Positions 46,933-64,000 of a DNA stretch of 64,000 bases are shown here, one piece after another (the stretch's first letter is position 1; each line of letters starts with the position of its first letter). The notes below the pieces were generated by a model. The model saw only the letters and a list, made by a program, of their open reading frames with translations. It had not been told where the DNA came from and searched no databases. The stretch comes from Vicinamibacteria bacterium (GTDB taxonomy: Bacteria; Acidobacteriota; Vicinamibacteria; Vicinamibacterales; CAVVIG01). Position numbers and translations under genes: made by a program. The stretch is from assembly GCA_041485905.1 (NCBI GenBank), contig JBGPKK010000003.1, positions 2,042 through 66,041 on the forward strand, written 5' to 3'.

Positions 46933-49074
46933 TCAGGCAGCGGCGGCGATGCGTTGTGCTGCGTACCGCGCCAGCGCCATGACGGTCAGGGCAATGTTCA
47001 CCGTGATCGGAGACGGAATGACGCTGGCGTCGCAGATCCACAGGTTCTGGACGCCAAACACCTTCATATTGTGATCGACGACGCCGTCGTGCGGCTTCAG
47101 GGCCATCGCGTTTCCGCCCTGCATGTGCGCCGACATCACGCTGATGAAGTCGCTCTGGTCGATGCCGGCAAAGTAGTCGTCGATATCCTCCACGCGCCTC
47201 ACGACCCCGGCATTGAACCTGCTGATGAAGACTTCCTCGGCACCCATCTTGAACATCGCGTGTGCGGTGATCTTCATGCCTTTTGCGAGGCGTCGCCAGT
47301 CTTCATCAATCAGTTTGAAGTCAATCACGAAGCCGCTGTCACCAAGGACACCGCGCCTGATCTCTCCATAAGCCAGCGACGCGAAGACCGGTGTGGCGGT
47401 GATCATGTTGGAGATCCGGCGCAGCCTGCGTTGGAACTCCGGTCCCCAGGCCGGCAGACCGAGGGCGACGAGCCCGGGAGGCGCAAACGCGGTCTCGATG
47501 ATCATCCGCTCCTCGGGCACTTCCACGGCATAGGCGACCTGCTGGGCAAGGAAGGCATCCTGCCGTTCCGGGAACACCCCGATCACCGGCGAACCCACAT
47601 TGACACTGAACCGCCTGCCGACCGTGCGGACACCGGGCACGGCGCCCAGAAATCCGCTGCGCCAGAGCAACTTGGTGGACGCATACGCTCCCGCCGCGAG
47701 AATAAAGCGGTCGGCCTCGATCCGGACCGAACCGCTGCCCTCACCGACATGAATCGCCCGGACCTCGAGGTCCGAGTTCGCGGGTCCCCCAGGCGCGAAC
47801 TCGATCTTGGTCACCCTCGCGTCAGGAACCAGCAGACCGCCATTCCGCACAAATTCGGGGATAAATGTGACCAGCACCGACTGTTTCGCATCGTACTGGC
47901 AGCCCAGGTTGCAACGGCCGCATCCGATGCAATTCAGGGAGTTGGTTGACACTGTGATCGGCTCGAGCACCCGAGCGTACGCGGTGGCGGGGCCCACTCC
48001 CCCCGCGACCAGCTTCGCAAAGCCGTCCCGTACCGTGCGTGCCCCCTTCGAGATGACCCGTTCCTCCATGGGAGTCACGTGCAGGAGCTCGGTGAGCACG
48101 TCGAACTGCCTGTTGAAATCGGCGTAGTCGAGTCTGATGCCAAGATTCTCCCAGCGGCGTTTCAGATCGTCCCACCAGAAACCCGCCGGCCTCAACGCGA
48201 CCGCGTTGTTGACGACGGTGGAGCCGCCCACGCATCGGCCCTGCTGAAACATGAACTGCTGGTCCTTCGACAACGTGATGCCCGCATTCATGTACAGCTG
48301 CGAGAGGGATTCCAACGCCGAGGTCTTGAACTCGTCGTTCGTCACCAGCGGGCCGACTTCGAGCAGGATCACTCGAGCCTTGGGGTTCTCTTCCTGGATC
48401 GTCCGCGCCGCCACCGCGCCTCCGGCTCCTGAGCCGATGACGCAGTAGGTAAGCGACCCGGAGGGCCTGACGGCAACCTCTTGAGGCGACTTCCGGCGCT
48501 CGTGCAGCAGCTTCGACGATTCGGTGCGAGGCGGGTTGCTTAATTCCGGTCCGGAGGGCGGATTCCACGCGCGCTGCACGACAGGCACATATTCCATCGC
48601 GCGCCACAGCCGATCGTCGTCGAGGTAAGCGCTCACCAGCGTGAACTTGAACACGTCAAGAGTGGCGATGGTCTTGACCGTATCGTCTTCTTGTTCGGGA
48701 GCATCTCGGATGAGCATCTGATACATCTGCTCGATCCATGCCGCACGTTTCTCCCGACTCGACGCGAGAAAATGTCCGTGCCCGAGGAAGCTCTTGAATC
48801 CGTACCAGACTTTCACCGCGGCGTGCGCCACACTCGACTTGGGCCACCTCGGAGGCTCATAAAGGGGGAGCAGGGCCAGGGTGCCGATAAACTGCAGGAA
48901 GACCGGGGTGTTCACGCCAGCCAGAAAGCCATCGAGCTTGTTGACGATGGCGCTGCCATCGACTTTAAAGGGGCCGTCTCCATAGCCGAGTATCGATTCG
49001 GCGAAAGCGGCGACGAACGGCTTGTTCGCTTTCCAATAGGCCCATGCCAACAGCCTCGTCAGTTTCTTCAGCAC
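46933..49074 (-). CDS. GMC-family FAD oxidoreductase with about 210-aa N-terminal extension (long-chain alcohol oxidase-like size)
   Basis: FAD motif YCVIGSGAGGAVAARTI about 215 aa into the protein. GGSTVVNNAV. C-terminal MGGNAM...VFGVQNLWICDASVIPS. 713 aa against about 530-560 for ordinary bacterial GMC enzymes. Confidence 0.85.
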   Translation of the reverse strand: MLKKLTRLLAWAYWKANKPFVAAFAESILGYGDGPFKVDGSAIVNKLDGFLAGVNTPVFLQFIGTLALLPLYEPPRWPKSSVAHAAVKVWYGFKSFLGHGHFLASSREKRAAWIEQMYQMLIRDAPEQEDDTVKTIATLDVFKFTLVSAYLDDDRLWRAMEYVPVVQRAWNPPSGPELSNPPRTESSKLLHERRKSPQEVAVRPSGSLTYCVIGSGAGGAVAARTIQEENPKARVILLEVGPLVTNDEFKTSALESLSQLYMNAGITLSKDQQFMFQQGRCVGGSTVVNNAVALRPAGFWWDDLKRRWENLGIRLDYADFNRQFDVLTELLHVTPMEERVISKGARTVRDGFAKLVAGGVGPATAYARVLEPITVSTNSLNCIGCGRCNLGCQYDAKQSVLVTFIPEFVRNGGLLVPDARVTKIEFAPGGPANSDLEVRAIHVGEGSGSVRIEADRFILAAGAYASTKLLWRSGFLGAVPGVRTVGRRFSVNVGSPVIGVFPERQDAFLAQQVAYAVEVPEERMIIETAFAPPGLVALGLPAWGPEFQRRLRRISNMITATPVFASLAYGEIRRGVLGDSGFVIDFKLIDEDWRRLAKGMKITAHAMFKMGAEEVFISRFNAGVVRRVEDIDDYFAGIDQSDFISVMSAHMQGGNAMALKPHDGVVDHNMKVFGVQNLWICDASVIPSPITVNIALTVMALARYAAQRIAAAA

Positions 49075-49313: not shown

Positions 49314-50390
49314 TCAGAACGTTCGACGAAACTCTATTCTGATGATGTTGTTGTACCAGTCCGCGGTCGTGAGCGCGTGTCCGTACCCGACGTACACAGA
49401 GCTGCCACCACCGAATGTCGCGCGGCCACCAACTTTCAGGTTGACGATGTTGATGCCGCTTGCGTTGCTCACGGCTGCCGTCTGAAATCCTCCGAGGACG
49501 TGCCAGCCGACCAGCTCAACGATCGGGCCAAACTGGAGACCATCGCCTTGGTACACCTGGAAGCTCGGGCCGACGCCGTAGTACAGAACATCTCCGGCGA
49601 ACTTGTCCGGGCTTGACGTCGGCACTCCCGCCGACCCATTTGTCGGGTGGACATCGCCGATTTCTGATTCGAGCGCGAGGCGATCTGAAAGCGCTTGGTA
49701 GTAGAGCAGCGAGGGTTCGACGCTCCAGTGGTTCGTCCCCAAACCGTTCAAGGCCTTGCCAGATGGCATCCACGCTTGGAACTGCGCCGTGAGGTGGCTG
49801 TCTTCCGACGCCAGCAGGGCCACCTTCACCCCGGCCCGCGCGTCCCCCAATCCGCTCTGATCGGAAAAGCTCCCGCTCCCCGGCGCAAACGCCTGCGGCT
49901 GAAGCCAGCGCAGCGGAACGTCTACGAATCCGGACACGCGGTTGTGCACCGCGTATTCGCCGCGCAGGCGGAGCTCCTGAAAGTTCAAATCGGTCAGGAC
50001 CGCCGGGCCAGGGCCGGCCGCGTTGGGATCGAACGCGGCGTTGGCCTGGGGCAGGCCGCGGTAGCAGCCGCACTTCGCGTAGAAGAACTCCGCGCGATCT
50101 GGAGTGTCAATGTGGAACCCGGAGTCGAATCGAACCCGCACTTGCGACTCGACCGTGCTGTCGTCGACGTACCCGACCATGCTGGGGCGTCGTCGTCCCG
50201 GGTCGGTCGGGGGCGGTGAGGGCGGCCTCCCCTGAGCGAGCGCATTCGACGCCTGCTGGGACGAAGAGGCGGAGCGGAGGGCATCGAGCCAGACGAGGGC
50301 CCCGGTCGCCGGCGCTCCGTCGGCGCTCGTTTCTTGCGCGACTGCGGTCAGGGGCCATAGAAGCACGATCACTGCGACGAGACGTTGCAT
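49314..50390 (-). CDS. outer-membrane beta-barrel protein (MetA-pathway/phenol-degradation-type hydrophobic compound channel-like)
   Basis: Signal peptide MQRLVAVIVLLWPLTAVAQE, alternating beta-strand pattern, C-terminal IRIEFRRTF ending in Phe. GGAGG RBS. Confidence 0.6.
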   Translation of the reverse strand: MQRLVAVIVLLWPLTAVAQETSADGAPATGALVWLDALRSASSSQQASNALAQGRPPSPPPTDPGRRRPSMVGYVDDSTVESQVRVRFDSGFHIDTPDRAEFFYAKCGCYRGLPQANAAFDPNAAGPGPAVLTDLNFQELRLRGEYAVHNRVSGFVDVPLRWLQPQAFAPGSGSFSDQSGLGDARAGVKVALLASEDSHLTAQFQAWMPSGKALNGLGTNHWSVEPSLLYYQALSDRLALESEIGDVHPTNGSAGVPTSSPDKFAGDVLYYGVGPSFQVYQGDGLQFGPIVELVGWHVLGGFQTAAVSNASGINIVNLKVGGRATFGGGSSVYVGYGHALTTADWYNNIIRIEFRRTF

Positions 50391-50423: not shown

Positions 50424-53318
50424 CTACTGGCGTTGGCTGGTTCCCGGACGCGCCTTTTGCCGAACTTTATCGGATAGCGCCGTCACCGCAGCGCGATCGC
50501 GGGGCGATAGTTCCGGGACCAGGTGTGACAGGCTATCAAGGGCGTCCTGCGCCTCGGCCGGCGATCCCGGAAGAACCCGGTTGACAAGCGCCAGGTAAAC
50601 GCCGAGGGCCCGGGACAAGAGCTGGCGAGGACCTTCGGCGTCTCCAGTCTCCCTGCTCAGAGCCGCCAAGTTTACCAAAAGATCCCCGAAACGGAGTTGG
50701 AATTGCTGAAGGCGCGGCACCGTCGGATCGTTTGCGAGCTTCTCGAACAACGCGAGCGACTCCCGGTATTCGTCTTCCGCACCGCGCGACCCCGCTGACT
50801 GCAGGATCCGGCCCAGGAGGCCGTGCGCATCCGCCTGCTCGATGCCCAGCGACGGCGCGGGGCGAGCCAGATCCTCGAGCAGGTCGATCGCCTGCGCGCT
50901 CCGCTGTCGTGCGGCATCGAAGGCTTTCCTGGTGCGGAGCAGTTCCGCGAGGTTGTTGCAGTACTGGGCGAGCTCCATCTTCGACTCTCGGTTCGTCGGG
51001 TCTGCGGCGACAATACGTTCATCGATCTCGATCGCGCGCGTGAAGAGCGGCTCGACCTCAGCGGCGCGACGATCGTCCTGCGCGAGCAGGCTCGCGAGAT
51101 TGTTGTAGGCCCGCGCCAGTTCCTGGAAGGGCAGCGAATCGGTGGTCTTGCCGGCCAGCGAATCCAGAAGCCGAATCGATTCGCGGAAGTCCGACTCGGC
51201 GCGCTGGAAGTCCGCATCGCCTGGAGTGGCGCTGGAAGCGCGAAGGATGCCCCGGTTGTACAGGGTGCGCGCCAGCTCTTCCTGGTATTTCGCGTTCCGT
51301 GGGCTGTCTCGAACCAGCTGTTGCTGCCGAAGCAAGGCGCTGTCGTAGGCCCTTCCCGCGTCGGCCGCACGGCCGCTCATCGGCCTGAGCGTCTCGCCCA
51401 GCCAGTTCTGGACGTCCGCCAGGGCTTCGCGGTACTCGGCCGTGCGAGGAGAGAGGGCGACGAGGCTTTCGAACGCGGCGATCGCCTGCCGGTATTCCTC
51501 CGCCGCGTTGTCGACCTTCGCGAGCATGCGGCTGATGTGGCCCAGCCGGAGGTGGGCGAAAGCCAGGTCCCTGCGAATGTCCTCGCCGCTCGGCTTCTGC
51601 TGCATCAACGCGACGTAGAAGCGTTCCGCCCTGTTCAGCAACTCCCGGCGGAACTCCTCCATCTGGGGCACGTCCGCGCCGATGCGCGCCGGATCGCGAT
51701 CCGAGGCCGCCAACGTCTGGTCGACCGCGTTTCGGGCCAGCTGGAAGTTGATTTCAGCTCGCGAACTCTCTCTGGACGCCACGTAAGCGAGAGAGGCCGT
51801 GGCGATGAGCAGCGTTCCGAGAACGCCGGCCGCCCACTGCGCGCGCCGGAGCTTGGTCTTTCGCTCCTTCTCGACAGCTGCCTCGACGCGCTGGCGCTCT
51901 CGCTCGCTTCGGAGCAGGAAGTCCATCGCGCGATCCAACGACTCGCCGTACCGCTTCGCCCACGCGGGCGTCGGGTGATTCTCGTCTCTCCAGCGCAATG
52001 CGAGTTCGAGCTCGGGATCGCGCCACAGCCCTGCCGTGCCTTCCTCGCACCACCGGGCGGCCTCCGACAGGCGCACGTAGAAGGCCGCGGCCGTTTGTTC
52101 CTCCTCCGCCCACGCCATCAGACGCGACCAGCACCGCATCAAGCTTTCGTGCGACAGATCGATGATCGCTCGCGAGCTGAGCGGCTTGCCTGGGGGGGGC
52201 ATCAGGAAGCTGCGGCCCCGGGCCCGGAAGATCTCGACGACGCGGATGACCTCGGTTTGATCGATGTCGCAGATCGCGGCAAGCTCGGCGATCGACGTGG
52301 GCCGCCTGACACCGCGCTGATCCGAGAAGCTGTCGGTCAGCGCCTTGAAGATCTGCTCGGCGATCCCTTGCTTGGCTTCGGCGGCGGACTCGGCGTACGC
52401 CTCTTCGGCGTGCATCGAGAGGCAGTTGCGCAACGTGCCGACTTCTTCGTAGTCGACGACGTCGATCGGCTCGCCGGGCTGTGCCCGCCGTTCCCAGTGC
52501 TCCCAGGTTCGCATCAACGCGTGCTGCAGGACCGGAAGCTGGTCCTGATCGGCACCAAGATCGTTGAGCATGCGGACCACAAGGCGCGGTGCAATCGTGG
52601 CGCCGCCGACCGCCACCGGTCCGGTCATGGCCGATCGCAGCTCGTCGCGCGTCATGCGGGGCACGAGGTACTGGCCGGCGTTGACCGCTTCGGGGAGCCC
52701 GATGAACTCCGTGCAGTCGCCGATGAAATCGGACCGCATGGTCAAGACGGCGTAAATTGGAATCTCGTTCTGTCTGGTGGCCTCGAGCAGCAGCTTGACG
52801 AAGGCCGCCGCCTCGTCTCTCGAATTTTCGAACTGCCGACTCCGGTGGAAGCGAAACAGCTCCTCGAACTGATCGACGACGACCAGGAGGTTGTCGTCGC
52901 GCGGAATTTGTGCCTGCCGGACGAGGTCGACAAGCCCGAGCGTGCTGCGGCGGAGCGTGGCGTCGAACAGCACCGCGTTCGTGCTGGCCAGGTCATCGTC
53001 GACTGCGAGGACACCGGGGGCGTCGAGCGCGGCGGCCAGATGGGAGATCGGATCCTCGCCTGGTCGAAACATCGCCACGCGCCAGCTGGTGCCCGCCCGG
53101 GCCATGAAGCCGCTGTGCAGGGATGGAATCAGCCCCGAGCGGACGAGAGACGACTTGCCGCTGCCCGAGGTGCCGACGACCGAGACGAACCGCGTCATCC
53201 GCAGGCGCCGAACCAGATCGTCGGTTTCCTTCTCGCGTCCGAAGAAGAGATGGTCTTCGTCCGGCTCGAACGGGCGCAGTCCGGGAAAAGGATTGAAGAG
53301 CGCGCCGGTCGGACTCAC
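50424..53318 (-). CDS. nSTAND1-type STAND NTPase with central TM helix and C-terminal TPR array
   Basis: N-terminus NPFPGLRPFEPDEDHLFFGRE, Walker A VVGTSGSGKSSLV, Walker B LLVVVDQFEELF, then the helical/wHTH region. A hydrophobic helix WAAGVLGTLLIATASLAYVA follows KERKTKLRRAQ. The last about 430 aa are TPR-like repeats. GTG start overlaps the upstream stop (GTGA). Confidence 0.85.
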   Translation of the reverse strand: MSPTGALFNPFPGLRPFEPDEDHLFFGREKETDDLVRRLRMTRFVSVVGTSGSGKSSLVRSGLIPSLHSGFMARAGTSWRVAMFRPGEDPISHLAAALDAPGVLAVDDDLASTNAVLFDATLRRSTLGLVDLVRQAQIPRDDNLLVVVDQFEELFRFHRSRQFENSRDEAAAFVKLLLEATRQNEIPIYAVLTMRSDFIGDCTEFIGLPEAVNAGQYLVPRMTRDELRSAMTGPVAVGGATIAPRLVVRMLNDLGADQDQLPVLQHALMRTWEHWERRAQPGEPIDVVDYEEVGTLRNCLSMHAEEAYAESAAEAKQGIAEQIFKALTDSFSDQRGVRRPTSIAELAAICDIDQTEVIRVVEIFRARGRSFLMPPPGKPLSSRAIIDLSHESLMRCWSRLMAWAEEEQTAAAFYVRLSEAARWCEEGTAGLWRDPELELALRWRDENHPTPAWAKRYGESLDRAMDFLLRSERERQRVEAAVEKERKTKLRRAQWAAGVLGTLLIATASLAYVASRESSRAEINFQLARNAVDQTLAASDRDPARIGADVPQMEEFRRELLNRAERFYVALMQQKPSGEDIRRDLAFAHLRLGHISRMLAKVDNAAEEYRQAIAAFESLVALSPRTAEYREALADVQNWLGETLRPMSGRAADAGRAYDSALLRQQQLVRDSPRNAKYQEELARTLYNRGILRASSATPGDADFQRAESDFRESIRLLDSLAGKTTDSLPFQELARAYNNLASLLAQDDRRAAEVEPLFTRAIEIDERIVAADPTNRESKMELAQYCNNLAELLRTRKAFDAARQRSAQAIDLLEDLARPAPSLGIEQADAHGLLGRILQSAGSRGAEDEYRESLALFEKLANDPTVPRLQQFQLRFGDLLVNLAALSRETGDAEGPRQLLSRALGVYLALVNRVLPGSPAEAQDALDSLSHLVPELSPRDRAAVTALSDKVRQKARPGTSQRQ

Positions 53319-54811
53319 CCCTGGCCTCCCAGGAGGGTCCCTTTCAGGCGGGAGACCAGCGGCCGCAGGGGATCGAGCGAAAACCCTTCGAACTGGGGAA
53401 TGACCAGAGCTTCATGAGTGCGAAACCGTTCCTTCTCCGCGGTCCGCGGGGCGATGACGGCGATGCCGACAACCGGTCGCGGCTTGGTCCGGCCGAGGCC
53501 GGCCGCCTTCTGGATCTCGCGCAGCTTGCGCCGCAGCCAGATCTCGCTCGCGGTTCCGTAAAACAGCAGCACGCCGTCGCAGGTCGACAGGTTTTCGTCG
53601 TGGAACTCCCGGATCTCGGCTTCGTCGCCCTCGAAGGCCGGTCGAATGGTCTCCAGATGCTCCTCAAACAGCGCGTCCGCCCACGCGGAGACTTGCTGTT
53701 CGTCGCGCTGGTCGTAGACCAAATACAGCCGAGGCAAATCGCCGGACACCGCAGCAACGCTGGTCTCGACGGTCGGTTCCAGCGGCCGCTTCAGCTGATC
53801 GTGAATGACCGTCGTCAGGTCTTCCAGAAACGTCTCGAGCAGGTCCGCGCCCTGGTGAGCCCGCGGATCGAGGCGGAGTCGATCGATGACCTGTCGCTGC
53901 CGCGGATCGGTCACGTCGAGCCCGGGAGGGATCCACAGGATTCGCGAGAACTTCCCCGCCTCGCCCCGTTCGATGGCGAGTTCGTTCTGAATCTCGATGA
54001 GCGACTCCAGGGCGCCTTCCGGGACCAAGCTGTAGTGTTTGCCGATGAGGTGGACTGACATCCGACAGCGCGCCAGATTTTCACGAACCGTCGCCTTCAG
54101 GTCGGAGTCGACCGGCGGCAGCGCCGCCTCCGGGAAAACCGTGTAGCCGTGCTGCAGCAGGTCGCGCCTGATCGCTTCGCGCTGCTCTCTCAAATCACTC
54201 GTGGTCTCCGCAAGAAATACCCCGCCTTTTCCGACTTCGGTTGGCGCCGTCGTCCCTGGCGGGCTTTCCAGCTTCTCGAGCAGCGCGCAGATGTCATGGG
54301 CCAGGTCGTCGAGCTTGATCCAGAAGTCGCGTTGCGCGGACGGTCCGAACACCTCGTCGAGCTCTCGGATTTTTCCGGTCTCGGGATCGATCTTGTAGAA
54401 CTCGTATCCGAGCAACGGTCGCAGTTGGGCGGGCGTGCTGTCGAGCGGGATCGGCGTCTTCAGGACCTTGAAGATTCGTGCCTTGCCGGCCACGGTGAGG
54501 CCGCCCTGTCGCTCGGCAGCCGTCCAAAACTCTGAGAGCTCGCGCAGCGTCCACTCCGACTTGATGTAACGCGGCGAGACAACCGACACGAGGACGGCCA
54601 CGCGCGCCAGTCGTGCGACCAGGGTCTCGGCAAAGAAATCGTTACCCTGCAGTTTGGGATCGCGCCAGATGTGCGGCGACTTGCCCAGCAGCTGCGCAAC
54701 CCGGACTTCCAGGGCGCGATGCAGGTTTGAAACCCATCCTTTCTGTCCCTCGACCAGCTCGACGTTGTCCAGGTGGGCGTAGCTGATGAAGGCATCACCC
54801 TCAAAGTCCAT
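53315..54811 (-). CDS. TIR domain protein with additional DUF4062-like and third TIR-like/flavodoxin-like modules
   Basis: Start MDFEGDAFISYAHLDN (GAGGGGA RBS). SPRYIKSEWTLRELSEF (SxWxxxEL with Glu). Second module VFLAETTSDLREQREAIRRDLLQHGYTV...IGKHYSLVPEGALESLIEIQNELA. Third module LYLVYDQRDEQQVSAWADALF...DGVLLFYGTASEIWLRRKL. Confidence 0.8.
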   Translation of the reverse strand: MDFEGDAFISYAHLDNVELVEGQKGWVSNLHRALEVRVAQLLGKSPHIWRDPKLQGNDFFAETLVARLARVAVLVSVVSPRYIKSEWTLRELSEFWTAAERQGGLTVAGKARIFKVLKTPIPLDSTPAQLRPLLGYEFYKIDPETGKIRELDEVFGPSAQRDFWIKLDDLAHDICALLEKLESPPGTTAPTEVGKGGVFLAETTSDLREQREAIRRDLLQHGYTVFPEAALPPVDSDLKATVRENLARCRMSVHLIGKHYSLVPEGALESLIEIQNELAIERGEAGKFSRILWIPPGLDVTDPRQRQVIDRLRLDPRAHQGADLLETFLEDLTTVIHDQLKRPLEPTVETSVAAVSGDLPRLYLVYDQRDEQQVSAWADALFEEHLETIRPAFEGDEAEIREFHDENLSTCDGVLLFYGTASEIWLRRKLREIQKAAGLGRTKPRPVVGIAVIAPRTAEKERFRTHEALVIPQFEGFSLDPLRPLVSRLKGTLLGGQG

Positions 54812-54960
54812 GCGCGGTTCCCCTCTGGGGTGCTGATTGGAGCGAGCCTCAAAAACCAAGTTTAGGCTAGGCCAAAAGCAGGGACCTGTCCAGCGCGCGG
54901 CCGTGGGCCGCGGCTCGGGTTGACCGGCGGTCGGCCGACGCGCCAAGATCAGGGCCTCCT

Positions 54961-56877
54961 GTGGACGAGCCCACTCAACTCACCGCAACCGCGTTCCAAC
55001 GGGCCGGCCAGGAGCTGCTCCAGCGAAGCGAGCCGCTCGCGGCCTACGACGCGCTCGCCGACGGTCTCCGACAGTTTCCCGGCGATGTCCGCTTGCGACA
55101 GTTAACGGCGCTCGCGCTGGCGCGATCCGGAGCGAGCCAACTCGCGAGCCCGATCCTGCATGAGCTGCTGCGCGAGGGGCACGAGGACGAAGAAACGCTC
55201 GGTCTTCTCGCGCGGACCCACAAGGATCTCTGGGCGGCCAGTATTGACGCCTCGGAGCGACGCCGGCATCTCGAGCAGGCGTCTCACTTCTACCTGGTGG
55301 CCCACCGCGCGTTCGGCGGGATCTGGAGCGGGATCAATGCGGCGACGATGGCGCTGCTGCTCGGTGATGCGCAGACCGCCACGGCGCTCGCCCTGAGCGT
55401 CCGCGAGCAGTGCCGGTTGAATCTACGCGCCGATCCGAGTGCGGGCGACGACTACTGGACGGTCGCGACGCTGGGTGAGGCGGCCCTCATTCTGCAGGAT
55501 TGGCCCCAGGCGGAAGACTGGTACGCGCGCGCGTCCGCGCTTGGCGCCACCCATCTGGGCGACCTGGCGTCCACCCGCCGCAACGCCCGTCTGATCCTCT
55601 GCCACCTCCAGGCCGGCGGCGCCCGCATCGAAGCCTGTCTGCGAATTCCGAACGTCGTTCTGTGCGCGGGTCACCTCATCGACCGTCCTGATCGGACCGA
55701 GCCCCGGTTCCCGCCCGAGCTCGAGCCGGCCGTGCGCTCGGCGATTGGTGACCGGCTTCGAGAGGTGGGCGTCGGGTTCGGATACGCGTCGGCGGCCTGT
55801 GGCGCCGACATCCTGTTCCTCGAGAGCGTGCTCGAGTTGGGCGGCGAAGCCCACGTCATTCTCCCCTATGATCGCGAACGGTTTGTCGAGGACAGCGTCG
55901 ATCTCGGTCCCGGGACCGACTGGATCGGACGATTCGAGCGTGTCCTTGCCGGGGCGCATGACGTGCACACCGCGTCGCATCATCGCATGGGCACCGGTGG
56001 CGTCTCTTACGAATACGGATTTCTGCTGATGGATGGGGCCGCCGCTCTTCGGGCGGATGAGCTGGACACGGAGCTCGTGTGTCTCGCTGTGTGGGACGGC
56101 AAACCTGGCGACGCGGTGGGCGGAACGGCAACTGCGGTCGCGCGGTGGCGGCGGGCGCGCCGCCGCGTCGAGGTCATCGACCTTGCCGAGATCATGCGGC
56201 GCCAGACGCCGTTGATCATCGCGCCCCAGAGCGCTACCCCCGCGCCGGACGCGGACACCGACGCGGGTGTGGCGCCGGGACCGCGCGCGACTGCTTCAAA
56301 CGACGCTGGGCCCGTTTGCGAGCCCGAGATCGTCGGTCTGCTGTTCGCCGACGCTCGGGGCTTCAGCAAGCTGACCGACGCGGACATCCCGATCTTCGTC
56401 GAGCATTACCTCAGCATCGTGGTACGTAAGCTGGAGGCAGTCGAGCAAGAGCCCCTCTTGAGGAACACGTGGGGCGATGGTCTGTATCTCGCGTTCCGGA
56501 ACGTGCGCGATGCCGGAATCTTCGCGCTCGACTTGTGTGAAGCCGTTCGAGACACTGACTGGCAGGCAAAGGGGCTCTCGACCGATCTGAGCCTGCGGAT
56601 CGGTCTTCACGCCGGGCCTGCGTATTCATGCATCGATCCGGTCACCGGCCGTCCCAATATCTTCGGCGCTCACGTGAGCCAGGCCGCCCGCATTGAACCG
56701 ATCACACCGCCCGGTCACGTGTACGCAAGCGGCGCGTTCGCTGCGCTCGCGCGCGCGGACGAAGTGCGGGAGTTCGTGTGTGCCTACGTCGGTCGGACGC
56801 CGCTCGCCAAGAGCTATGGTGCATTCCCGACCTACGTCCTTCATCGTCGGAGGGAGCCGGCCCGTGAGCGCCCGTGA
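54961..56877 (+). CDS. three-module protein: DUF4071 (TRAF-binding/TPR-like) + SLOG-like Rossmann module + class III nucleotidyl cyclase domain
   Basis: aa 1-225: ETLGLLARTHKDLW and GINAATMALLLG (DUF4071-like). aa 230-410: VVLCAGHLIDRPDRTEPRFPPE...ASAACGADILFLESVLELGGEAHVILP...LAVWDGKPGDAVGGTA. aa 456-628: LLFADARGFSKL, WGDGLYLAF, RIGLHAGP, FGAHVSQAARIE (cyclase homology domain). GTG start, no clear RBS. Confidence 0.78.
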   Translation: MDEPTQLTATAFQRAGQELLQRSEPLAAYDALADGLRQFPGDVRLRQLTALALARSGASQLASPILHELLREGHEDEETLGLLARTHKDLWAASIDASERRRHLEQASHFYLVAHRAFGGIWSGINAATMALLLGDAQTATALALSVREQCRLNLRADPSAGDDYWTVATLGEAALILQDWPQAEDWYARASALGATHLGDLASTRRNARLILCHLQAGGARIEACLRIPNVVLCAGHLIDRPDRTEPRFPPELEPAVRSAIGDRLREVGVGFGYASAACGADILFLESVLELGGEAHVILPYDRERFVEDSVDLGPGTDWIGRFERVLAGAHDVHTASHHRMGTGGVSYEYGFLLMDGAAALRADELDTELVCLAVWDGKPGDAVGGTATAVARWRRARRRVEVIDLAEIMRRQTPLIIAPQSATPAPDADTDAGVAPGPRATASNDAGPVCEPEIVGLLFADARGFSKLTDADIPIFVEHYLSIVVRKLEAVEQEPLLRNTWGDGLYLAFRNVRDAGIFALDLCEAVRDTDWQAKGLSTDLSLRIGLHAGPAYSCIDPVTGRPNIFGAHVSQAARIEPITPPGHVYASGAFAALARADEVREFVCAYVGRTPLAKSYGAFPTYVLHRRREPARERP

Positions 56878-56992
56878 GGCTGCGATCTGAACGTCGCGGG
56901 CCGTGCACTGTTCGCCCGACGTTTGACGCCGGCCGTGGATCGCCGCCGCGGTGCCAGCTCGGTGCCGCAAGGTGCTGGAAGGAAAACAACGT

Positions 56993-57796
56993 ATGCGCGT
57001 CACGTTCTGGGGAGTTCGCGGATCCGTGCCCTGGGCAACCCCGTCGTCGATTGGCCACGGTTGCAATACGCCCTGCATCGAGCTGCAGGCCGATTCAGGG
57101 GATCACCTGGTGCTGGACGCCGGATCAGGCATCATGGGTCTGGGCAAGAGGCTGGAGGAGGTCACCCGGCCGATTCCGGTGTTGCTGACCCATTACCACT
57201 GGGACCACCTGCAGGGTCTGCCGTTTTTCGAACCGCTGCATCAGCCGCGCTCAGCCGTAACGTTGTGGACGCCTTGTCTGGAAGGGTACAGCGCCGCGTG
57301 GATCACGACGATCTTCCAGTCACAGTTTTTTCCCGTCCCGTTCGATCAGTTACCGGCGCGGCCGAAATTTGAGGCGGTTCAGCCAGGCCGGCTGAACGTG
57401 GAGTGCTTCGAGGTGCGCGCGATCTCCCTCAACCATCCAGGCGGCGCGTTCGCGTACCGCATTCGCGGCACGGACGGCGATCTTGTATACGCGACCGACC
57501 ACGAGTTGGGCGTCGACGCCTTCGACGACCCACTGCGCGAGTTCATCGCAGGAGCGCGCGCCGTGATCTTCGATGCGCACTTCAGGCCGGACGAAATAGC
57601 CGCTCACCGAGGTTGGGGCCACAGCACGTGGGAGGATGCCGCCAGGTTCAGCGCCGCTGCGAAGGTCGGACGGCTCTGGCTGTTTCATCACAAACCTGGA
57701 CGCACCGACGCGGAGCTGACCGAGATCGAAAGCGACGCCCGGACAATCTTTGCGGCCACCGATGCGGCGTCCGAGGGCGACAGCTTCGACATCTGA
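56993..57796 (+). CDS. MBL-fold metallo-hydrolase (Lactamase_B_2 type)
   Basis: MRVTFWGVRGS, LVLDAGSG, LLTHYHWDHLQGLPFF (HxHxDH), GHST, LFHHKP. GGAAGGA RBS. Confidence 0.85.
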   Translation: MRVTFWGVRGSVPWATPSSIGHGCNTPCIELQADSGDHLVLDAGSGIMGLGKRLEEVTRPIPVLLTHYHWDHLQGLPFFEPLHQPRSAVTLWTPCLEGYSAAWITTIFQSQFFPVPFDQLPARPKFEAVQPGRLNVECFEVRAISLNHPGGAFAYRIRGTDGDLVYATDHELGVDAFDDPLREFIAGARAVIFDAHFRPDEIAAHRGWGHSTWEDAARFSAAAKVGRLWLFHHKPGRTDAELTEIESDARTIFAATDAASEGDSFDI

Positions 57797-58583: not shown

Positions 58584-61500
58584 ATGCGCGCGTTTCACTC
58601 CCGTCCGATGCGGTCTCGCTTTGCGCCCCCCAGGTCGCGTGCCTTCCTCGTCTCGCTCGCGCTGATGGTGTTCGCGGCGCGGCTCGCCGCCGGTGAGCCG
58701 CAGCAGCCGGCACGCTCGAAACCGATCGCGGCCGGTGCGCAGGGGAAGATCGTGCTCATTCAGGGGCATGTCGACTCGGCGCTGGCGAGCGATCAGGAAA
58801 AGTGGGATACGGCGAAGCTGTTTCAGCCACTCTTCGTCAGCGACCGCGTGCGGACACTGACCGCGAGCCGCAGCGCGATTCTTTTCGTTGACGAAACCCA
58901 GGTGAAGCTCAACGGCGGCGCGGTTCTCACCGTGCAGCAGATCAAAACCGCCGGCGGCACGTCGACGACCCTCGGTCTGCTCGAAGGCGAAGGGTGGTTC
59001 CGCACGAAGAACCCGGCGAGCGGGCTGACGATCAGGACGCCGACGGCCGCTGCCGCCATCCGCGGCACCGAAATTAACCTGGCGATTCGCGGTCAGAACA
59101 CGGTGCTCACCGTCACTGAAGGGGCTGCGGAATTCTCCAACGACGCCGGGTCGCTGCTCGTCACTGCCGGCGAGGAAGCGACGGCGACTCCGGGACAGCC
59201 GCCCACCAAGCGCGTGCTGCTCAATCCGGAAGACGCCGTGCAGTGGGTCCTGTATTATCCGACGCGCGCGGCCTGGCACGATCTGCCCATGGCCGCACAG
59301 GCCGGTCCGGCGCGCGCAGGATTCGATCGCATGAAGGCCGGCGATGCCGCGGGCGCGCTCGCCGCGTTTCAGCCGGTGGTGACCGCCGACATCTGGGCGC
59401 GCATCGGCGCCGCGATGGCGCACGAGCAGCTCGGCGACGCGGCGCTAGCGCGCTCGCTGCTGATGGCCGGGACCGCAACCGGAGAGGCCGAGGTGGAGCG
59501 CCGGACCGAGCTGGCGGCGGCAGCGCTGGCGATGGGCGATGCGGGCGCGGCGCGCACGGAGATCGAGGCGGCCCGCGCGCTCGATTCGACGGCGGCGCGT
59601 CCGCTCGCGCTCCTCTCCGCGCTCGAGCTCACGCAGAACCACAAAGAGGAAGCGGCTGCGGCCGCGCGGTCCGCCGTCGCCGCGGATCAAGACTCTGTGG
59701 CGGCGCACGTCGCGGCAGCCGAAGCCGCGCAGGCGGCTTTTGATCTGGAGGCGGCGCGGCGCGAGCTGGACACGGCGCTGGCGATCGATCCGGCCGACAC
59801 CCGCGCACTGGTCGATCGCGCGCGCATCCGCTTCGGCGTCGCTGATACGGCCGGCGCGCGACAGGATGCCGACCGGGCGGTGGCGATCGCGCCGGCCGAT
59901 GCCCAGGCTCGATCGCTGCTCGGCTTCATCGAGCTCGCGGACGGGGCGGGGGATGCGGCGCGAGTGGATTTCGAAGCCTCTGTCGCGGCCGACGCGGCGC
60001 TTGGCGAGCCGCATCTCGGTCTAGGCCTCCTCGACTTCCGCCACGACCAGATCGACGATGGGCTGCTCGAAATGCTCACCGCGACGCTGCTCGAGCCAAA
60101 GGTGTCGCTCTATCAGAGCTATCTCGGCAAGGCGTACTACCAGCTTCGACGTTTTCCTGAAGGGCTCGCGGCGCTCACGACGGCCAAGCGGCTCGATTCG
60201 CGCGACCCGACGCCGTGGCTGTACACCAGCCTGTTCCTGCGCGATCTGAACCGCCACATCGCAGCACTCGACGAGCTCCGACATGCCATTGCCCTCAACG
60301 ACAACCGCGCGGTGTATCGAAGCCGGCTGCTGCTCGATCGGGATCTGGCCACGAAGAACGTCAGTCTCGCCCAGCTGTACAACCAGCTTGGGTTCGAGGC
60401 GTGGGGCGCGTCCGAAGCGCTCAACTCCCTGAACGCGGACCTCACCAACGCCAGCGCCCATCTGTTCCTCTCGCAAACGTACGGCAACTTGCCCGATCGC
60501 ACGCAGGCGCTCGGCAGCGAGCTGCTGCAGTACTTTCTGTACGCACCAGTGAATCTCAACTCGTTCAATAATTTCAGCGAATACACGGCGCTCCTCGAAC
60601 AGCCGCTCAAGCAGGCGCTCGTCACCTCCGGCGGGGGCAACGACGGATACGCGACCACAGACGTCACCACCCGCTCGGGTAACCAGCGGTTTGCGCACGT
60701 CGCGTTCCTCGACTACAGCCGTCGCGACGGCCCGCGGATCGACGGCTCCGATCACCGCGTGCAGGGGTTCGCGCAGGGGAAGGTGGCGCTTGGCGCGGCG
60801 AGCGACCTGTTCTTCAGTGTCACGGGCGTCAAGAATACTCGCGGGCAGAGCAACGATGTGACGCGCACGATCGGCACGTTCCCGAATGTGGTGCTGGTCA
60901 ACGAAATCCGGGAGAGCCGCGACGCCACCTTCACGCACCGCGACGACACGGCCGAGGCGACGCTGGGATTCAAGCACCTATGGCGGCCAGGCTCGGCGTT
61001 CACCGCGGCGACGGCCTTCAGTTACCTGGGAAGCTCGGACGAAGATCCGGAGGCGATCACGTCGGCATGTCAGGGTTTCGATCTCAGCCAGTTCTTCTCG
61101 CATTCATCCTCGCGGCTCACCTATCCGTATCACTCGTATACCCTTCAGGCGCAGCAAGCCACGCGGATTGGGCGACATCAGATACTCTTCGGGACCGAGT
61201 TCTCTCACCGTAACAAGACGTTCAGCTGCCACGAAGATATCCTGTTCGACCCCACTGGCGAGCTCGTGGCGCACTTGGACAACGAGTCGAGCGCGACCGA
61301 GCACGTGGCCTCAGGCTACGTGCGCGACGACATCGAGCTCGGGCGTCGCGTACATGCGACCGTCGGCGCCCGGTACGAAAATGGCCTGTACGGAGACGTG
61401 CAGCAGACGTTCGACGATTTCACCTTCGGGCGCTGGAATCCGTACGCCGGGCTGTCAGTTCGACTCTCGTCGGCCACTGTGATTCACCTGGCGGGATTCC

Positions 61501-62153
61501 GGAACACAAATTCCGACTTCCTCAGTGCCAAGATCTCGCCGCCGACGGTCGCGGGGTTCGTCTTCGAGCGCAACGAGCTGCCAACCGCGCAGCGTGATGA
61601 AGCCGACCTCGCGGTACAGAACGCGTGGGGGCGATCGTTTGTGGAGGCCCGTGTGTTTCGACACAAAACGGTGGCGCCCGCCTTCCTGCGAGTCCCCCAG
61701 GGCCTGCCGGCGTCTTTCGCCAGCCTGACGCCGGATGCGGACTTCCGCGCCACCGGCTTCAGCTCGTTTTTCAATCAGATTCTCGGGTCGCGAGCCGGTC
61801 TGTTCGCCGATGAGCAATTCATTCGCAGGCGGGCGGTGCTGTTCGATCGGGACGACAATCAGATCGGCGTCGGCGTCAACTACATCCACCCGCGCGGTCT
61901 GTTCGTGCGGATCAGCGCCCGGTCCCTGACGCAGCGCTTCTCGAGAACGACGGTCACGGATCTGCCGGAAAGCTCCTTCGTTCTCGCTGACACCGAGCTC
62001 AAGTACGAGTTCGCGGGCAAACGCGGGCTTCTCACCTGCAGTGTCACGAACCTGTTCAACCGCGGCTTCCACGCGGTGATCGAAAACCTCGCCGTCGAGC
62101 AGCCGCTGCCGCAACGACGGATGTCGATCACGCTGCGCTGGAGAATCGGATGA
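58584..62153 (+). CDS. FecR-domain / TPR / C-terminal beta-barrel outer-membrane-type protein (1189 aa)
   Basis: Signal peptide. FecR-like segment (GKIVLIQGHVDS...VKLNGGAVLTVQQ...TPTAAAAIRGTEINL...VTEGAAEFSN). Ala-rich TPR region. C-terminal half has a beta-strand-rich pattern ending ITLRWRIG. Confidence 0.72.
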   Translation: MRAFHSRPMRSRFAPPRSRAFLVSLALMVFAARLAAGEPQQPARSKPIAAGAQGKIVLIQGHVDSALASDQEKWDTAKLFQPLFVSDRVRTLTASRSAILFVDETQVKLNGGAVLTVQQIKTAGGTSTTLGLLEGEGWFRTKNPASGLTIRTPTAAAAIRGTEINLAIRGQNTVLTVTEGAAEFSNDAGSLLVTAGEEATATPGQPPTKRVLLNPEDAVQWVLYYPTRAAWHDLPMAAQAGPARAGFDRMKAGDAAGALAAFQPVVTADIWARIGAAMAHEQLGDAALARSLLMAGTATGEAEVERRTELAAAALAMGDAGAARTEIEAARALDSTAARPLALLSALELTQNHKEEAAAAARSAVAADQDSVAAHVAAAEAAQAAFDLEAARRELDTALAIDPADTRALVDRARIRFGVADTAGARQDADRAVAIAPADAQARSLLGFIELADGAGDAARVDFEASVAADAALGEPHLGLGLLDFRHDQIDDGLLEMLTATLLEPKVSLYQSYLGKAYYQLRRFPEGLAALTTAKRLDSRDPTPWLYTSLFLRDLNRHIAALDELRHAIALNDNRAVYRSRLLLDRDLATKNVSLAQLYNQLGFEAWGASEALNSLNADLTNASAHLFLSQTYGNLPDRTQALGSELLQYFLYAPVNLNSFNNFSEYTALLEQPLKQALVTSGGGNDGYATTDVTTRSGNQRFAHVAFLDYSRRDGPRIDGSDHRVQGFAQGKVALGAASDLFFSVTGVKNTRGQSNDVTRTIGTFPNVVLVNEIRESRDATFTHRDDTAEATLGFKHLWRPGSAFTAATAFSYLGSSDEDPEAITSACQGFDLSQFFSHSSSRLTYPYHSYTLQAQQATRIGRHQILFGTEFSHRNKTFSCHEDILFDPTGELVAHLDNESSATEHVASGYVRDDIELGRRVHATVGARYENGLYGDVQQTFDDFTFGRWNPYAGLSVRLSSATVIHLAGFRNTNSDFLSAKISPPTVAGFVFERNELPTAQRDEADLAVQNAWGRSFVEARVFRHKTVAPAFLRVPQGLPASFASLTPDADFRATGFSSFFNQILGSRAGLFADEQFIRRRAVLFDRDDNQIGVGVNYIHPRGLFVRISARSLTQRFSRTTVTDLPESSFVLADTELKYEFAGKRGLLTCSVTNLFNRGFHAVIENLAVEQPLPQRRMSITLRWRIG

Positions 62154-62346
62154 CCAGCGAACGTCGGTCGGAACCTGCCAGGTGACCGGCCGGAGCGGCG
62201 TTGAACAGCTGCGACAGTTCTTCTTTCCGGCCAAGGCCGTCGTTCATCCACTGCCTTACGTGCTGATCGCGGCGCTCGGCGTCGCATTCGGTCTCGGGCT
62301 TGGCGCGCTCTCACTTTCGCAGCGCCTCGAGTGGGCTCTCTACGAC

Positions 62347-64000
62347 CGCATGATGCAAACGGCCACGCGCGTTGCGCGTCCGCCCTCCGATATCGTCGTG
62401 GTCGCGATCGACGAGCTGTCATTCAGCGAGATCGGGCTGCAATGGCCGTGGCCGCGCCGCCTGCACGCCCAGTTGATCGATGTGCTCGTGCGCGGTGGTG
62501 CGCGCACGATCGCGTTCGACCTGCTGTTCGACGTGCCGAGTACGACGGCCGATGATGAAGCGCTGGCACGCGCGGTGCGGAGCGCGGGAAACGTCGTGCT
62601 CGCGAGCGATCGCGCGGAGGTGAGCGATCGGGCGTACACCGTGCAGCAGTGGAGAGAGCCGATTCCAGTGCTCGGCGAAGCAGCCGCTGCCGTCGGGGCG
62701 GTCGGCATCGACATCGATCCGGACGGCGTGCTGCGCCGCACGGCCGCTACGATCGACGGGCGACCGGCGCTGGCGCTCGCTGTCGCTCGGCGACAGCCGC
62801 ACGCCGCGGCGCCGTGGGATGGCGATCGTCCTCGCTTGATCCACTTCTGCGGCGCGTCGCGACAGGGCATCGTCACGGTCTCGTACTACCAGGCGATTGA
62901 GCCGGGGCTGTTGCCCGCCGGCCTGTTTCGCGATAAGGCCGTCCTGGTGGGCCGGTCGCTCTCCGCTGCGGCTGCGCTGGACGCGCCGGATCATTTCCGC
63001 ACGCCGGTGGCCCTTCGAATGGCCGGCGCCGAAGTGCAGGCGAACCTGCTCGATACGCTGCTTCGCCGCCGCGCAATTGCCGACCCGTTCGGCGAGTATG
63101 GCGCCTTGGTCCTCTGGTCCATCGCGATCGCGACCGTCGCGGCGTTGACCTTCTATCGCCTCGGGCCGCCGGCCGGCGTGGCGACGCTCATCGCGAGCGC
63201 GCTCGTCTTCACCGCCGCCGTCTACGTCGCGCTCTCTGCCTACAATGTGCGAGTGCCGGTTGTCGGCCCCCTGCTGGCCGTTGCCGGCGTGTACGTCTCC
63301 ACCACCACCTACAGGTTCGCGCTCGGACAGCGTGAGCGGCGACTGATCCGACGCGCGTTTCAACACTATGTCGCGCCGGCCATCGTCCAGCAGATGCTCG
63401 ACGACCCGTCGCGACTCAAGCTTGGCGGCGAGGAATGCGAAGTGTCGGTGTTGTTCACCGACCTCGAGGGGTTCACGAGCGTCGCCGAGCGTCTGAAGCC
63501 GGAGGAGCTCCAACGCCGACTGTCGACATACTTCAAAGCGATGATGGACGTCCTGCTCGCCGAGCGAGCCACGCTCGACAAGTTCATCGGTGATGCGATC
63601 ATGGTGTACTTCGGTTGCCCGATTCGCGACGCTGCGCACCCGGTGCAGGCGTGCCGCGCCGCGCTCGCGATGCAGCGCCGTCTCGCCGAGCTCAACGATG
63701 AATGGCGTGGTACCCAGGCGCCCGAGCTCCGCATGCGCATCGGCGTCAACACGGGCGTGGCCGTCGCCGGCAACATGGGCACCGACACGATCTTCAACTA
63801 CACGATCATCGGCGACTGCGTGAACCTCGCCTCGCGGCTCGAGGGCGTGAACAAAGAGTACGGCACGTGGACCATTGTCGGCGCCGAGACCTGGGCGCGC
63901 GTCAATGCACAGTTCGAGGCGAGGGAGCTCGACTGGATTCGGGTCAAAGGCAAGGCACAGCCGATTGCCATTTACGAGCTCATGGCTGCGGCCGGCGAGT
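62347..64000 (+). CDS. CHASE2 sensor domain adenylate/guanylate cyclase (3' end beyond window; N-terminus probably frameshifted)
   Basis: My own translation (the ORF has no stop in the window, so it is absent from the track). CHASE2 motifs: DIVVVAIDELSFSEIGLQWPWPRRLHAQLIDVL..GGARTIAFDLLF. TM cluster follows. Canonical cyclase motifs: VLFTDLEGFTS, FIGDAIMVYFG, RIGVNTGVAVAGNMG, IIGDCVNLASRLEG. The first in-frame ATG is 62347. The expected N-terminal TM helix lies in another frame from about 62259. Confidence 0.82.

Follow-up and report, generated by a model that had tools for sequence, protein, structure and literature searches.

A TPR-S/SLOG/class III cyclase protein linked to TIR and STAND genes: a candidate Thoeris-like system in Vicinamibacteria and other bacteria

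The cyclase gene and the modules of its product

The gene considered here lies at positions 54961..56877 on the plus strand of a 64,000-nucleotide stretch of contig JBGPKK010000003.1 from a Vicinamibacteria bacterium, hereafter the window, and encodes a protein of 638 amino acids in which a TPR-S module, a SLOG-fold domain and a class III nucleotide cyclase domain are joined in one polypeptide. It has a GTG start, the coordinates include the stop codon, and it stands divergently to an operon encoding a TIR-DUF4062 protein and an nSTAND1 NTPase. Members of its family are found next to TIR genes in several phyla, and the protein may well be the receiver and output component of a TIR-based conflict system. 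The three-module anatomy had been claimed in an earlier sequence-only reading of the window and is upheld by Pfam, by an AlphaFold2 (AF2) model and by Foldseek; all of the motifs quoted there (GLLARTHKDLW, GINAATMALLLG, VVLCAGHLIDRPDR..PRFP, ASAACGADILFLES, GGEAHVILP, WDGKPGDAVGGTA, FADARGF, WGDG and GAHVSQAARIE) are indeed present in the translation. The full-length AF2 model of the monomer has a predicted local distance difference test score (pLDDT) of 89.9 and a predicted template modelling score (pTM) of 0.88.

The N-terminal module (residues ~9-216, 54985..55608, plus strand) is all-helical, its helices spanning residues 9-216 of the full-length model, and it is matched by two Pfam families, namely TPR-S (PF20308, residues 29-130, E 1.7e-18, 67.5 bits against a threshold of 27.6) and MAP3K_TRAF_bd, formerly DUF4071 (PF13281, residues 43-184, E 3.2e-7, 30.1 bits against 24.1). 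The latter name reflects that the TPR-S fold forms the regulatory region of animal MAP3K5/ASK kinases. Since the top 50 Foldseek matches of the full-length model are all cyclases, with no structural relative of the TPR-S module among them, the assignment is that of Pfam; the module is a predicted ligand sensor. Conservation was counted, here as for the other modules, across 202 family members made up of 120 database proteins and 82 genomic loci, and R85, K88, D89, N126 and N208 are kept in 195-201 of these relatives, the last of them within a near-invariant STRRN segment at residues 204-208.

The central domain (residues ~222-415, 55624..56205, plus strand) has no match in Pfam, NCBIfam, PADLOC or the PDB sequences, even when searched with a profile of 48 sequences, and at E<=10 none of the central domains of these 48 family members matches Pfam and no PDB sequence is found. 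Because the sequence searches came back empty, the domain was identified by structure comparison. The AF2 model of residues 200-425, computed with 85 homologues, is a six-stranded alpha/beta structure with a mean pLDDT of 90.3, and its best Foldseek match in the PDB is YpsA of Bacillus subtilis (2nx2, E 4.5e-8, TM-score 0.68 on the target), followed by DprA (5mll, 4ljk, 3uqz), ShosA, the molybdenum cofactor (Moco)-carrier protein, LOG enzymes and TM1055. These top matches all belong to the SLOG superfamily, and among viral structure models the matches are likewise DprA-like, 'YspA cpYpsA-related SLOG' and DUF2493 proteins. As modelled, the central domain is hence a YpsA-like SLOG-type Rossmannoid fold, and the SLOG-like character that had been guessed for it, with structure prediction set beforehand as the test, is what the prediction gave. 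YpsA is the best structural counterpart, yet it shares only 16% identity and is a stand-alone, cell-division-related protein. In its sequence a Gly-aromatic loop following strand 1, a helix that begins with GxD/E and a Gly-rich loop ahead of the last helices succeed one another as they do here. The near-invariant motifs of the window's clade are GH(L/M)IDxPxRxxPRFP after strand 1, which is specific to this clade and not found in YpsA, followed by CGxDxLFxE, LPY/F and WDGxxGDGxGGT, and the residues H238, D241, R245, R249, E255, D283, E288 and W378 are kept in 199-202 of the 202 relatives. The clade has no published sequence model in the libraries searched.

A disordered linker of variable length (residues 422-449, 56224..56307, plus strand; pLDDT <50 and gap-rich in the alignment) leads from the SLOG domain to the class III cyclase homology domain (residues ~455-629, 56323..56847, plus strand). 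The latter is recognised by Pfam (Guanylate_cyc, PF00211, residues 457-628, 31.4 bits, the cut-off being 21.9), by matches of its profile to PDB sequences (3mr7 at 7.7e-10 and 3et6 at 3.6e-9) and by Foldseek, with TM-scores on the target (TMt) of 0.7-0.83 to CyaC, CyaB, RhGC, Rv1900c and Ma1120. Residue equivalences were set by HMMER alignments to 3et6, a soluble guanylyl cyclase, and to 3mr7. They align D464 and D506, the Asp residues of the FADARGF and WGDG motifs already singled out in the sequence-only reading, with the canonical metal-binding Asp residues, and both are present in 202 of 202 relatives, as are the phosphate-binding R546 and E579, whereas the transition-state R577 is found in 201 and K617 in 199.

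The substitution of the ribose-orienting and transition-state Asn by Ser, also noticed from the sequence, is confirmed by both alignments, which place Ser573 (codon 56677..56679, plus strand) at the Asn site, in line with the Asn of FGDTVNTASRME in 3et6. The transition-state Asn-Arg pair (N-x-x-x-R) is consequently incomplete in the window protein, with Arg577 kept and the Asn replaced. Ser is however no peculiarity of this locus, as its proposed bearing on the chemistry had implied, being the majority state of a position that varies among the 202 members (S 164, N 17, A 16, G 2, V 2 and T 1, that is S 81%, N 8% and A 8%). Because the 17 relatives with the canonical Asn have an otherwise identical motif, the site tolerates exchange without losing the rest, and going by the alignment Ser573 is a family-wide, tolerated state, neither the mark of a dead enzyme nor a sign of exotic chemistry. 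An altered substrate may still be considered, but the better reason for it is one that the sequence-only reading had missed, namely the residues that specify the base. Position 502 (Lys in adenylate and Glu in guanylate cyclases) is Asn in 198 of 202 relatives and position 566 (Asp or Cys in canonical cyclases) is Asn in 146, Ser in 26 and Thr in 19, so that the Asn502/Asn566 pair corresponds neither to the Lys/Asp of ATP-specific nor to the Glu/Cys-Ser of GTP-specific enzymes; the substrate and product are therefore not readable from sequence. Rv1900c, a mycobacterial non-canonical cyclase that likewise departs from the Lys/Asp specificity pair, shares the cyclase fold (1ybu/1ybt, TMt 0.81-0.83, 23% identity) but has other regulatory domains and lacks a TIR context.

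TIR and STAND neighbours in the window and among relatives

The minus-strand neighbours of the cyclase gene form a tight operon. Its first gene (53315..54811) encodes the TIR-DUF4062 protein of 498 amino acids, a predicted NAD+-cleaving signal generator matched by TIR_2 and DUF4062 of Pfam, with E91 as the catalytic Glu of the SxWxxxE motif. It overlaps by 4 nt the start of the gene for a 964-residue nSTAND1 NTPase with C-terminal TPRs (50424..53318; PF20703, E 1.2e-94), a predicted trigger-sensing switch. The fourth gene of the cluster, also on the minus strand (49314..50390), encodes an outer-membrane beta-barrel-like protein with a signal peptide and likeness to Phenol_MetA_deg (PF13557, E 4.4e-7), which one would hardly expect in a TIR/STAND system of the cytoplasm. 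The conserved start of the TIR gene is the ATG at 54811 (MDFEGDAFISYAH), with GAGGGG about 8 nt upstream. The longest open reading frame (ORF), 53315-54946, would begin at a TTG at 54946, 14 bp off the cyclase start, but this extension is not conserved; automatic annotation could easily over-extend the gene to that TTG.

Counted from the conserved ATG, the divergent spacer between the TIR operon and the cyclase gene is 149 bp long (54812..54960, sequence read directly), in agreement with the distance of about 150 bp between opposite-strand starts given in the sequence-only reading. In these 149 bp neither a sigma-70-like promoter nor a convincing operator-like element was found. A conserved operator or promoter in this region was considered and rejected, since there are only short G+C-rich palindromes and the layout varies among relatives. 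The 'shared divergent control region' that had been proposed to connect the two transcription units is thus not the link, given that the orientation and position of the TIR gene vary in relatives.

The cyclase gene itself belongs to a large family. A word-indexed protein search returned >2,600 homologues, the best 120 of which all have the same architecture, an exhaustive HMMER search with residues 1-420 against 50%-identity representatives matched 1,001 clusters at E<=1e-30, a number that rises to 2,736 when the limit is set at E<=1e-10, and a scan of one genome per species found at least 560 loci. The phyla include Acidobacteriota, Cyanobacteria, Verrucomicrobiota, Chloroflexota, Gemmatimonadota, Methylomirabilota and others, and the gene is real and not a chance ORF.

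To what extent the neighbourhood is shared was examined in 82 loci, whose ORFs were searched with the window's neighbours and then with a TIR profile built from these loci. The TIR-DUF4062 protein has orthologues in 22 of them and nSTAND1 has orthologues in 24, an orthologue of the barrel protein follows nSTAND1 in 15, and the four-gene set of the window recurs in L001, L003, L005, L034, L041, L044, L089 and others. TIR ORFs of any kind are present in 48 of the 82 loci and lie within 3 kb of the cyclase gene in 46, across several phyla. There are 57 such ORFs in all, 40 of them within 344 bp of the cyclase gene and 52 inside 3 kb, with only 5 beyond despite the larger amount of outer-flank DNA. 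The TIR domain is furthermore constant, as 58 of 58 neighbouring TIR proteins (the window's included) are TIR_2 by Pfam and all 58 retain the catalytic Glu of SxWxxxE. What it is fused to is not, the partners being DUF4062, TPR, WD40, Sel1, protein kinase, CHASE2 or a membrane domain. Gene order varies as well: the TIR-DUF4062 gene is divergent in L001, L003, L005, L034, L041 and L044, co-directional and downstream in L012, L018, L027, L030, L032 and L060, and upstream on the same strand in L033, and TIR genes at large are divergent, co-directional upstream or downstream, convergent, or split off by unrelated genes. Two further metagenomic contigs (L089 and L090) have the same gene set, and in one of them three unrelated genes intervene between the pair and the cyclase gene. 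The conserved feature is therefore the linkage to TIR genes and not the promoter layout, and the combination of varied TIR partners and gene order with a constant TIR domain and constant linkage is the signature of a functional partnership. A cyanobacterial locus may also be mentioned: in Dapis sp. (L050, 12175-15429, minus strand) the neighbour has three TIR domains and CHASE2, and two more large TIR-containing ORFs follow.

Some rare architectures of the family add to this picture. One relative (P0281) joins nSTAND1 to TPR-S/SLOG/cyclase, and with TIR genes within 3 kb in 46 of 82 loci and the window's own pair in 22-24, the connection to the TIR-STAND pair suggested in the sequence-only reading, and the co-occurrence elsewhere by which it was to be checked, are both borne out. 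P0278 has the order cyclase-STAND-TPR-S-SLOG-cyclase, P0288 has ~700 amino acids of C-terminal sequence with TPRs and no Pfam cyclase match, and short relatives of 440-512 amino acids consist of TPR-S and SLOG without a cyclase, being either complete proteins or contig-end fragments. An N-terminal cyclic nucleoside monophosphate (cNMP)-binding domain in P0269 and an N-terminal GAF domain in P0324 fit a genuine cNMP-producing enzyme with feedback. In a sub-branch comprising P0089, P0093, P0094, P0099, P0100, P0104, P0106 and P0115 as well as locus L002 (10001-12289) there is an N-terminal RyR domain (PF02026), which is curious as animal signalling by cyclic ADP-ribose (cADPR) converges on ryanodine receptors; the one locus of this branch that was examined, L002, has no TIR neighbour and is flanked by SecA and a kinase-TPR gene. 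A distant TPR-S and cyclase protein (~29% identity) on Caballeronia plasmid pSBC2-4 (L083, 5722-7488) seems to have lost the SLOG clade motifs from its middle region and has a DUF4231 gene and a TIR gene nearby.

The SLOG clade of the window also exists outside the fusion. A tblastn search of plasmids with residues 1-420 found stand-alone proteins of 175-194 amino acids with 30-43% identity and the same motifs, and this stand-alone family, which counts at least 2,600 proteins in the database and is mostly alphaproteobacterial, has no Pfam model. In Bradyrhizobium (L092, 7001-7585) the SLOG gene lies 10 bp upstream of the gene for a 446-residue TPR-S protein, and six TIR genes as well as patatin and AbiEii genes are found inside 14 kb; in Nitrobacter (L091, 7001-7585) it is divergent from the gene for a 1,746-residue DUF7379-CHAT-TPR-S protein, with a TIR gene adjoining; on a Rhizobium plasmid (L084, 6025-6552) it precedes a TPR-S gene in a cluster that also holds DUF4231, patatin, a second TPR-S and a CAP12/Pycsar-type TIR; and in Sinorhizobium (L085, 5989-6546) it stands between two TIR genes and a serine protease gene. 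TIR, a SLOG protein of the window's clade and a TPR-S protein whose effector is fused to it or encoded alongside thus form a recurrent triad across phyla. As it is the TPR-S protein that carries the effector in the systems with a stand-alone SLOG, the cyclase of the window protein occupies the effector position, that of CHAT or patatin.

An MBL-fold hydrolase gene (56951-57796, plus strand) starts 74 bp past the cyclase stop, and its product has a weak likeness to RNase Z, scores 41.7 bits against a cut-off of 400 with the NCBIfam model 'cyclic nucleotide-degrading phosphodiesterase' and has 6kns and 1zkp as its best PDB sequence matches (about 2e-5). As a dedicated phosphodiesterase and conserved part of the system it was rejected, since an orthologue adjoins the cyclase gene in just 1 of 82 loci (L008, in reverse orientation); the enzyme might be a cNMP phosphodiesterase peculiar to this lineage, or have nothing to do with the system. 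Farther downstream a FecR + TPR + TonB-receptor-like barrel protein of 1,189 amino acids (58584-62153, plus strand) overlaps the start of a second cyclase ORF (62080-64000, plus strand), which runs off the window end and does contain the canonical GDCVNLASRLE that the sequence-only reading had quoted from it, the name 'CHASE2' being that reading's label only. This ORF and the FecR gene are a pair unrelated to the TIR-linked cyclase. On the other side a minus-strand gene (41257-44163) encodes a 968-residue protein with a class III aminotransferase and a C-terminal shikimate/quinate dehydrogenase-like domain, and next to it are the genes for another aminotransferase (45318-46592) and for a GMC oxidoreductase that is much extended at its N-terminus (46933-49074).

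A proposed signalling route and its alternatives

On balance we favour, with moderate confidence, the view that the 638-residue protein acts as receiver and output component in a Thoeris-like conflict (immune) system based on TIR, in which a TIR signal is passed through TPR-S/SLOG to the cyclase. Several observations stand behind it: how the domains are arranged, that the metal- and phosphate-binding centre is intact, that the gene is linked to nSTAND1 and to genes of catalytically intact TIR proteins, and how the modules are fused or split among relatives. In such a system the nSTAND1-TPR NTPase, or elsewhere the TPR, WD40 or Sel1 repeats fused to TIR, would detect an invader or a stress cue, upon which the activated TIR domain would cleave NAD+ to an ADP-ribose-derived messenger of the cADPR type. 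The TPR-S module would bind this messenger, with the SLOG domain helping to bind it or processing it, and the bound ligand would bring two C-terminal cyclase domains into a productive dimer. The dimer may then make a cyclic nucleotide that serves as a second-tier messenger on unlinked targets, or alternatively it may drain the nucleoside triphosphate (NTP) pool. The sequence-only reading had spoken of a second-messenger generator or sensor wired to the TIR-STAND module, and of this the linkage has stood (46 of 82 loci) while the wiring by a shared control region has not. A full two-tier immune cascade, in which a TIR-made, NAD+-derived signal switches on the fused cyclase and this in turn sends out a second messenger to unlinked targets, possibly even through the barrel protein as a kin-warning signal, is a more tentative proposition; that the messenger might be a non-canonical cyclic nucleotide is suggested by the Asn/Asn specificity pair together with the Ser at the ribose site.

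Several points weigh against the favoured view. No TIR gene was found in the available DNA of 34 of the 82 loci, several of which are just 2-4 kb long, and the neighbours there are of housekeeping type; among the 116 ORFs neighbouring these TIR-less members no family occurs in more than 4 of them and there is no recurrent cNMP-binding protein, nor is any cNMP receptor or effector conserved in cis. Relatives of the family were not found on viral contigs, and the window cluster has neither a PADLOC match nor a G+C compositional anomaly that would point to horizontal transfer. The direction of signalling, the ligand and the product are moreover what we infer. Finally there are two candidate sensor domains, TPR-S and SLOG, in one protein, and the stand-alone SLOG genes suggest an enzyme or buffer over a sensor.

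This last point leads to the possibility that the SLOG domain, and perhaps the cyclase, convert, cyclise or destroy the TIR product or a related nucleotide, thereby setting a threshold or making the real ligand, with canonical cAMP or cGMP of no consequence, which we regard as improbable, though as the strongest of the alternatives. A stand-alone SLOG protein of ~194 amino acids without an effector is typically an enzyme or buffer and would be strange as an allosteric sensor, the polar residues H238, D241, R245, R249, E255, D283 and E288 are almost invariant, and the cyclase has non-canonical Asn/Asn base-specifying residues and a variable ribose-contact position. The Glu of the LOG motif PGGxGTxxE is however not conserved here, the window protein having Ala394 at the aligned position. 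That LOG-type SLOG proteins are N-glycosidases (PMC9503650) is in favour of processing, but the triphosphate-binding R546 and K617 are conserved as in NTP-using cyclases, and the fusions to cNMP-binding and GAF domains speak for the usual cNMP chemistry. Somewhat less attractive is the reverse, Pycsar/Pucsar-like direction, in which the TPR-S/SLOG/cyclase protein both senses and signals and its cyclic nucleotide activates TIR as an NAD+-depleting effector; we rate it as unlikely and slightly below signal processing. Cyclase and TIR pairs with such wiring are established (Pycsar and a 2026 Pucsar preprint), a CAP12/Pycsar-type TIR gene is present in the Rhizobium SLOG/TPR-S cluster, and a catalytic Glu kept in all neighbouring TIRs would fit an NADase effector equally. 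Yet neither a cNMP-binding nor a GAF domain was found in the TIR, nSTAND1 and barrel proteins of the window or in 20 other TIR neighbours, all scanned individually, whereas the Pfam summary of all 58 TIR proteins covers the 25 commonest families only, so that a rare cNMP-binding domain is possible among the other 37. The 21 TIR proteins scanned bear no such receiver, and TIR neighbours carry instead the repeat or STAND partners typical of trigger recognition. Furthermore, the Pfam name TPR-S denotes a sensor and SLOG domains are known to sense TIR products, related systems fuse TPR-S to effectors such as CHAT, or have patatin nearby, without any cyclase, and, as weaker evidence, the PDB sequences matched by the cyclase profile include no Pycsar cyclase.

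It would be simpler to assume a housekeeping adenylate or guanylate cyclase with TPR regulation whose TIR and STAND neighbours are coincidental, and indeed the annotation of relatives is plainly 'class 3 adenylate cyclase', in 34 of the 82 loci there is no TIR gene nearby and the surroundings are housekeeping-like, the window lacks a defence-island signature, and GAF and cNMP-binding fusions are frequent in physiological cyclases. Coincidence is nevertheless hard to reconcile with TIR genes within 3 kb in 46 of 82 loci of several phyla and with 52 of 57 TIR ORFs falling in that zone, with a linkage that outlasts rearrangement, with the existence of the nSTAND1 fusion P0281, and with the occurrence of TPR-S and SLOG modules elsewhere in TIR-rich clusters, and we consider this explanation quite improbable. 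Less credible still, and in our judgement very improbable, is the regulatory pseudo-cyclase raised in the sequence-only reading, in which the change from Asn to Ser would have abolished catalysis and left a domain that binds nucleotide or serves as a dimerisation scaffold. The canonical Asn is replaced here (Ser573) and is Ala, Gly or Val in ~10% of relatives, and inactive cyclase domains are reported from other conflict systems (PMC7159879). The rest of the catalytic centre is however invariant or nearly so: since 202 of 202 have the two metal Asp, the phosphate Arg and also Glu579, the transition-state Arg is present in 201 and the Lys in 199, and 17 relatives have the canonical Asn in a motif that is otherwise identical, loss of activity is unlikely, and the conservation is that which purifying selection on an active enzyme would produce, which argues against a pseudo-cyclase. 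The N-terminal cNMP-binding or GAF domains of some relatives speak against it as well.

Relation to known systems and biological meaning

A close parallel to the arrangement described here is found in type I Thoeris, where the SLOG domain of the SIR2-SLOG effector ThsA senses a cADPR isomer made by the TIR protein ThsB (10.64898/2025.12.03.692087). In both cases a TIR gene with its catalytic Glu kept adjoins a gene that joins a SLOG-fold domain to an enzymatic output. The output of ThsA is however a SIR2 NADase and not a class III cyclase, the present protein has an additional TPR-S module, and its TIR partners are large multidomain or STAND-associated proteins in a system known from genes alone. 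The central SLOG domain is moreover closest to YpsA and DprA, and no ThsA chain is among its top 50 PDB structure matches. A second parallel is ThsI, the type VIII Thoeris effector composed of TPR and a 'CMP hydrolase' domain, which is activated by canonical cADPR and whose TPR was, according to the same paper, assigned a predicted role in TIR signalling by Aravind and colleagues (10.64898/2025.12.03.692087). The TPR of ThsI is probably of the Pfam TPR-S family. ThsI and the window protein, set side by side by description, are both TIR-paired and have a TPR domain beside a nucleotide-processing domain, but ThsI lacks a cyclase domain, and type VIII systems occur mainly in Pseudomonadota rather than in Acidobacteriota, Cyanobacteria and Verrucomicrobiota as here. 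A class III cyclase as TIR partner does not appear in the main text of that paper or in the table rows covered.

Burroughs and Aravind catalogued in 2020, as summarised in a 2023 preprint, TPR-centred assemblies in which the partners are TIR, YpsA, patatin, LSDAT and calcineurin, and a class III cyclase partner is absent from that summary. Going by the papers that cite the catalogue, the TPR-S-centred conflict systems share with the present family the association with TIR, YpsA-type SLOG and patatin, which we recovered in L084, L085, L091 and L092, and differ from it in that the present family fuses TPR-S, SLOG and output, the last being a cyclase, into a single polypeptide. In Pycsar and Pucsar, too, the gene for a class III-type cyclase adjoins one for a TIR protein, and the setting is putatively immune. 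Their cyclases are however small and mostly stand-alone, while here the cyclase comes behind two sensor-type domains, and their TIR effectors have a cyclic-nucleotide-binding domain, of which there is none in the 21 TIR partners scanned individually; the wiring described in the 2026 Pucsar preprint is the opposite one, cyclase-made cGMP activating a TIR fused to such a domain. Neither a description of the TPR-S/SLOG/cyclase architecture nor experimental work on it was found in the literature, the 2020 catalogue itself, which may list the architecture, being outside this search.

We would class the locus as a Thoeris-like system of TIR, TPR-S and SLOG whose output is a nucleotide cyclase, and which is widespread among phyla that have received little study. 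The SLOG clade without a Pfam model, fused to the cyclase in some bacteria and stand-alone beside TPR-S effectors and TIR genes in others, offers a testable handle on the respective roles of SLOG and TPR-S. A nucleotide ligand of TPR-S, if demonstrated, would be of wider interest given the regulatory region of animal MAP3K5/ASK kinases. To our knowledge, the known TIR-based bacterial (Thoeris) systems end in effectors that directly kill or arrest the cell. If a cyclase indeed stands at the effector position, the TIR signal would be translated into a second diffusible messenger, and such a messenger would allow for amplification, branching or cross-talk with ordinary cAMP/cGMP physiology, in a family that is concentrated in soil and aquatic phyla rarely sampled by the defence screens carried out in E. 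coli and Bacillus.

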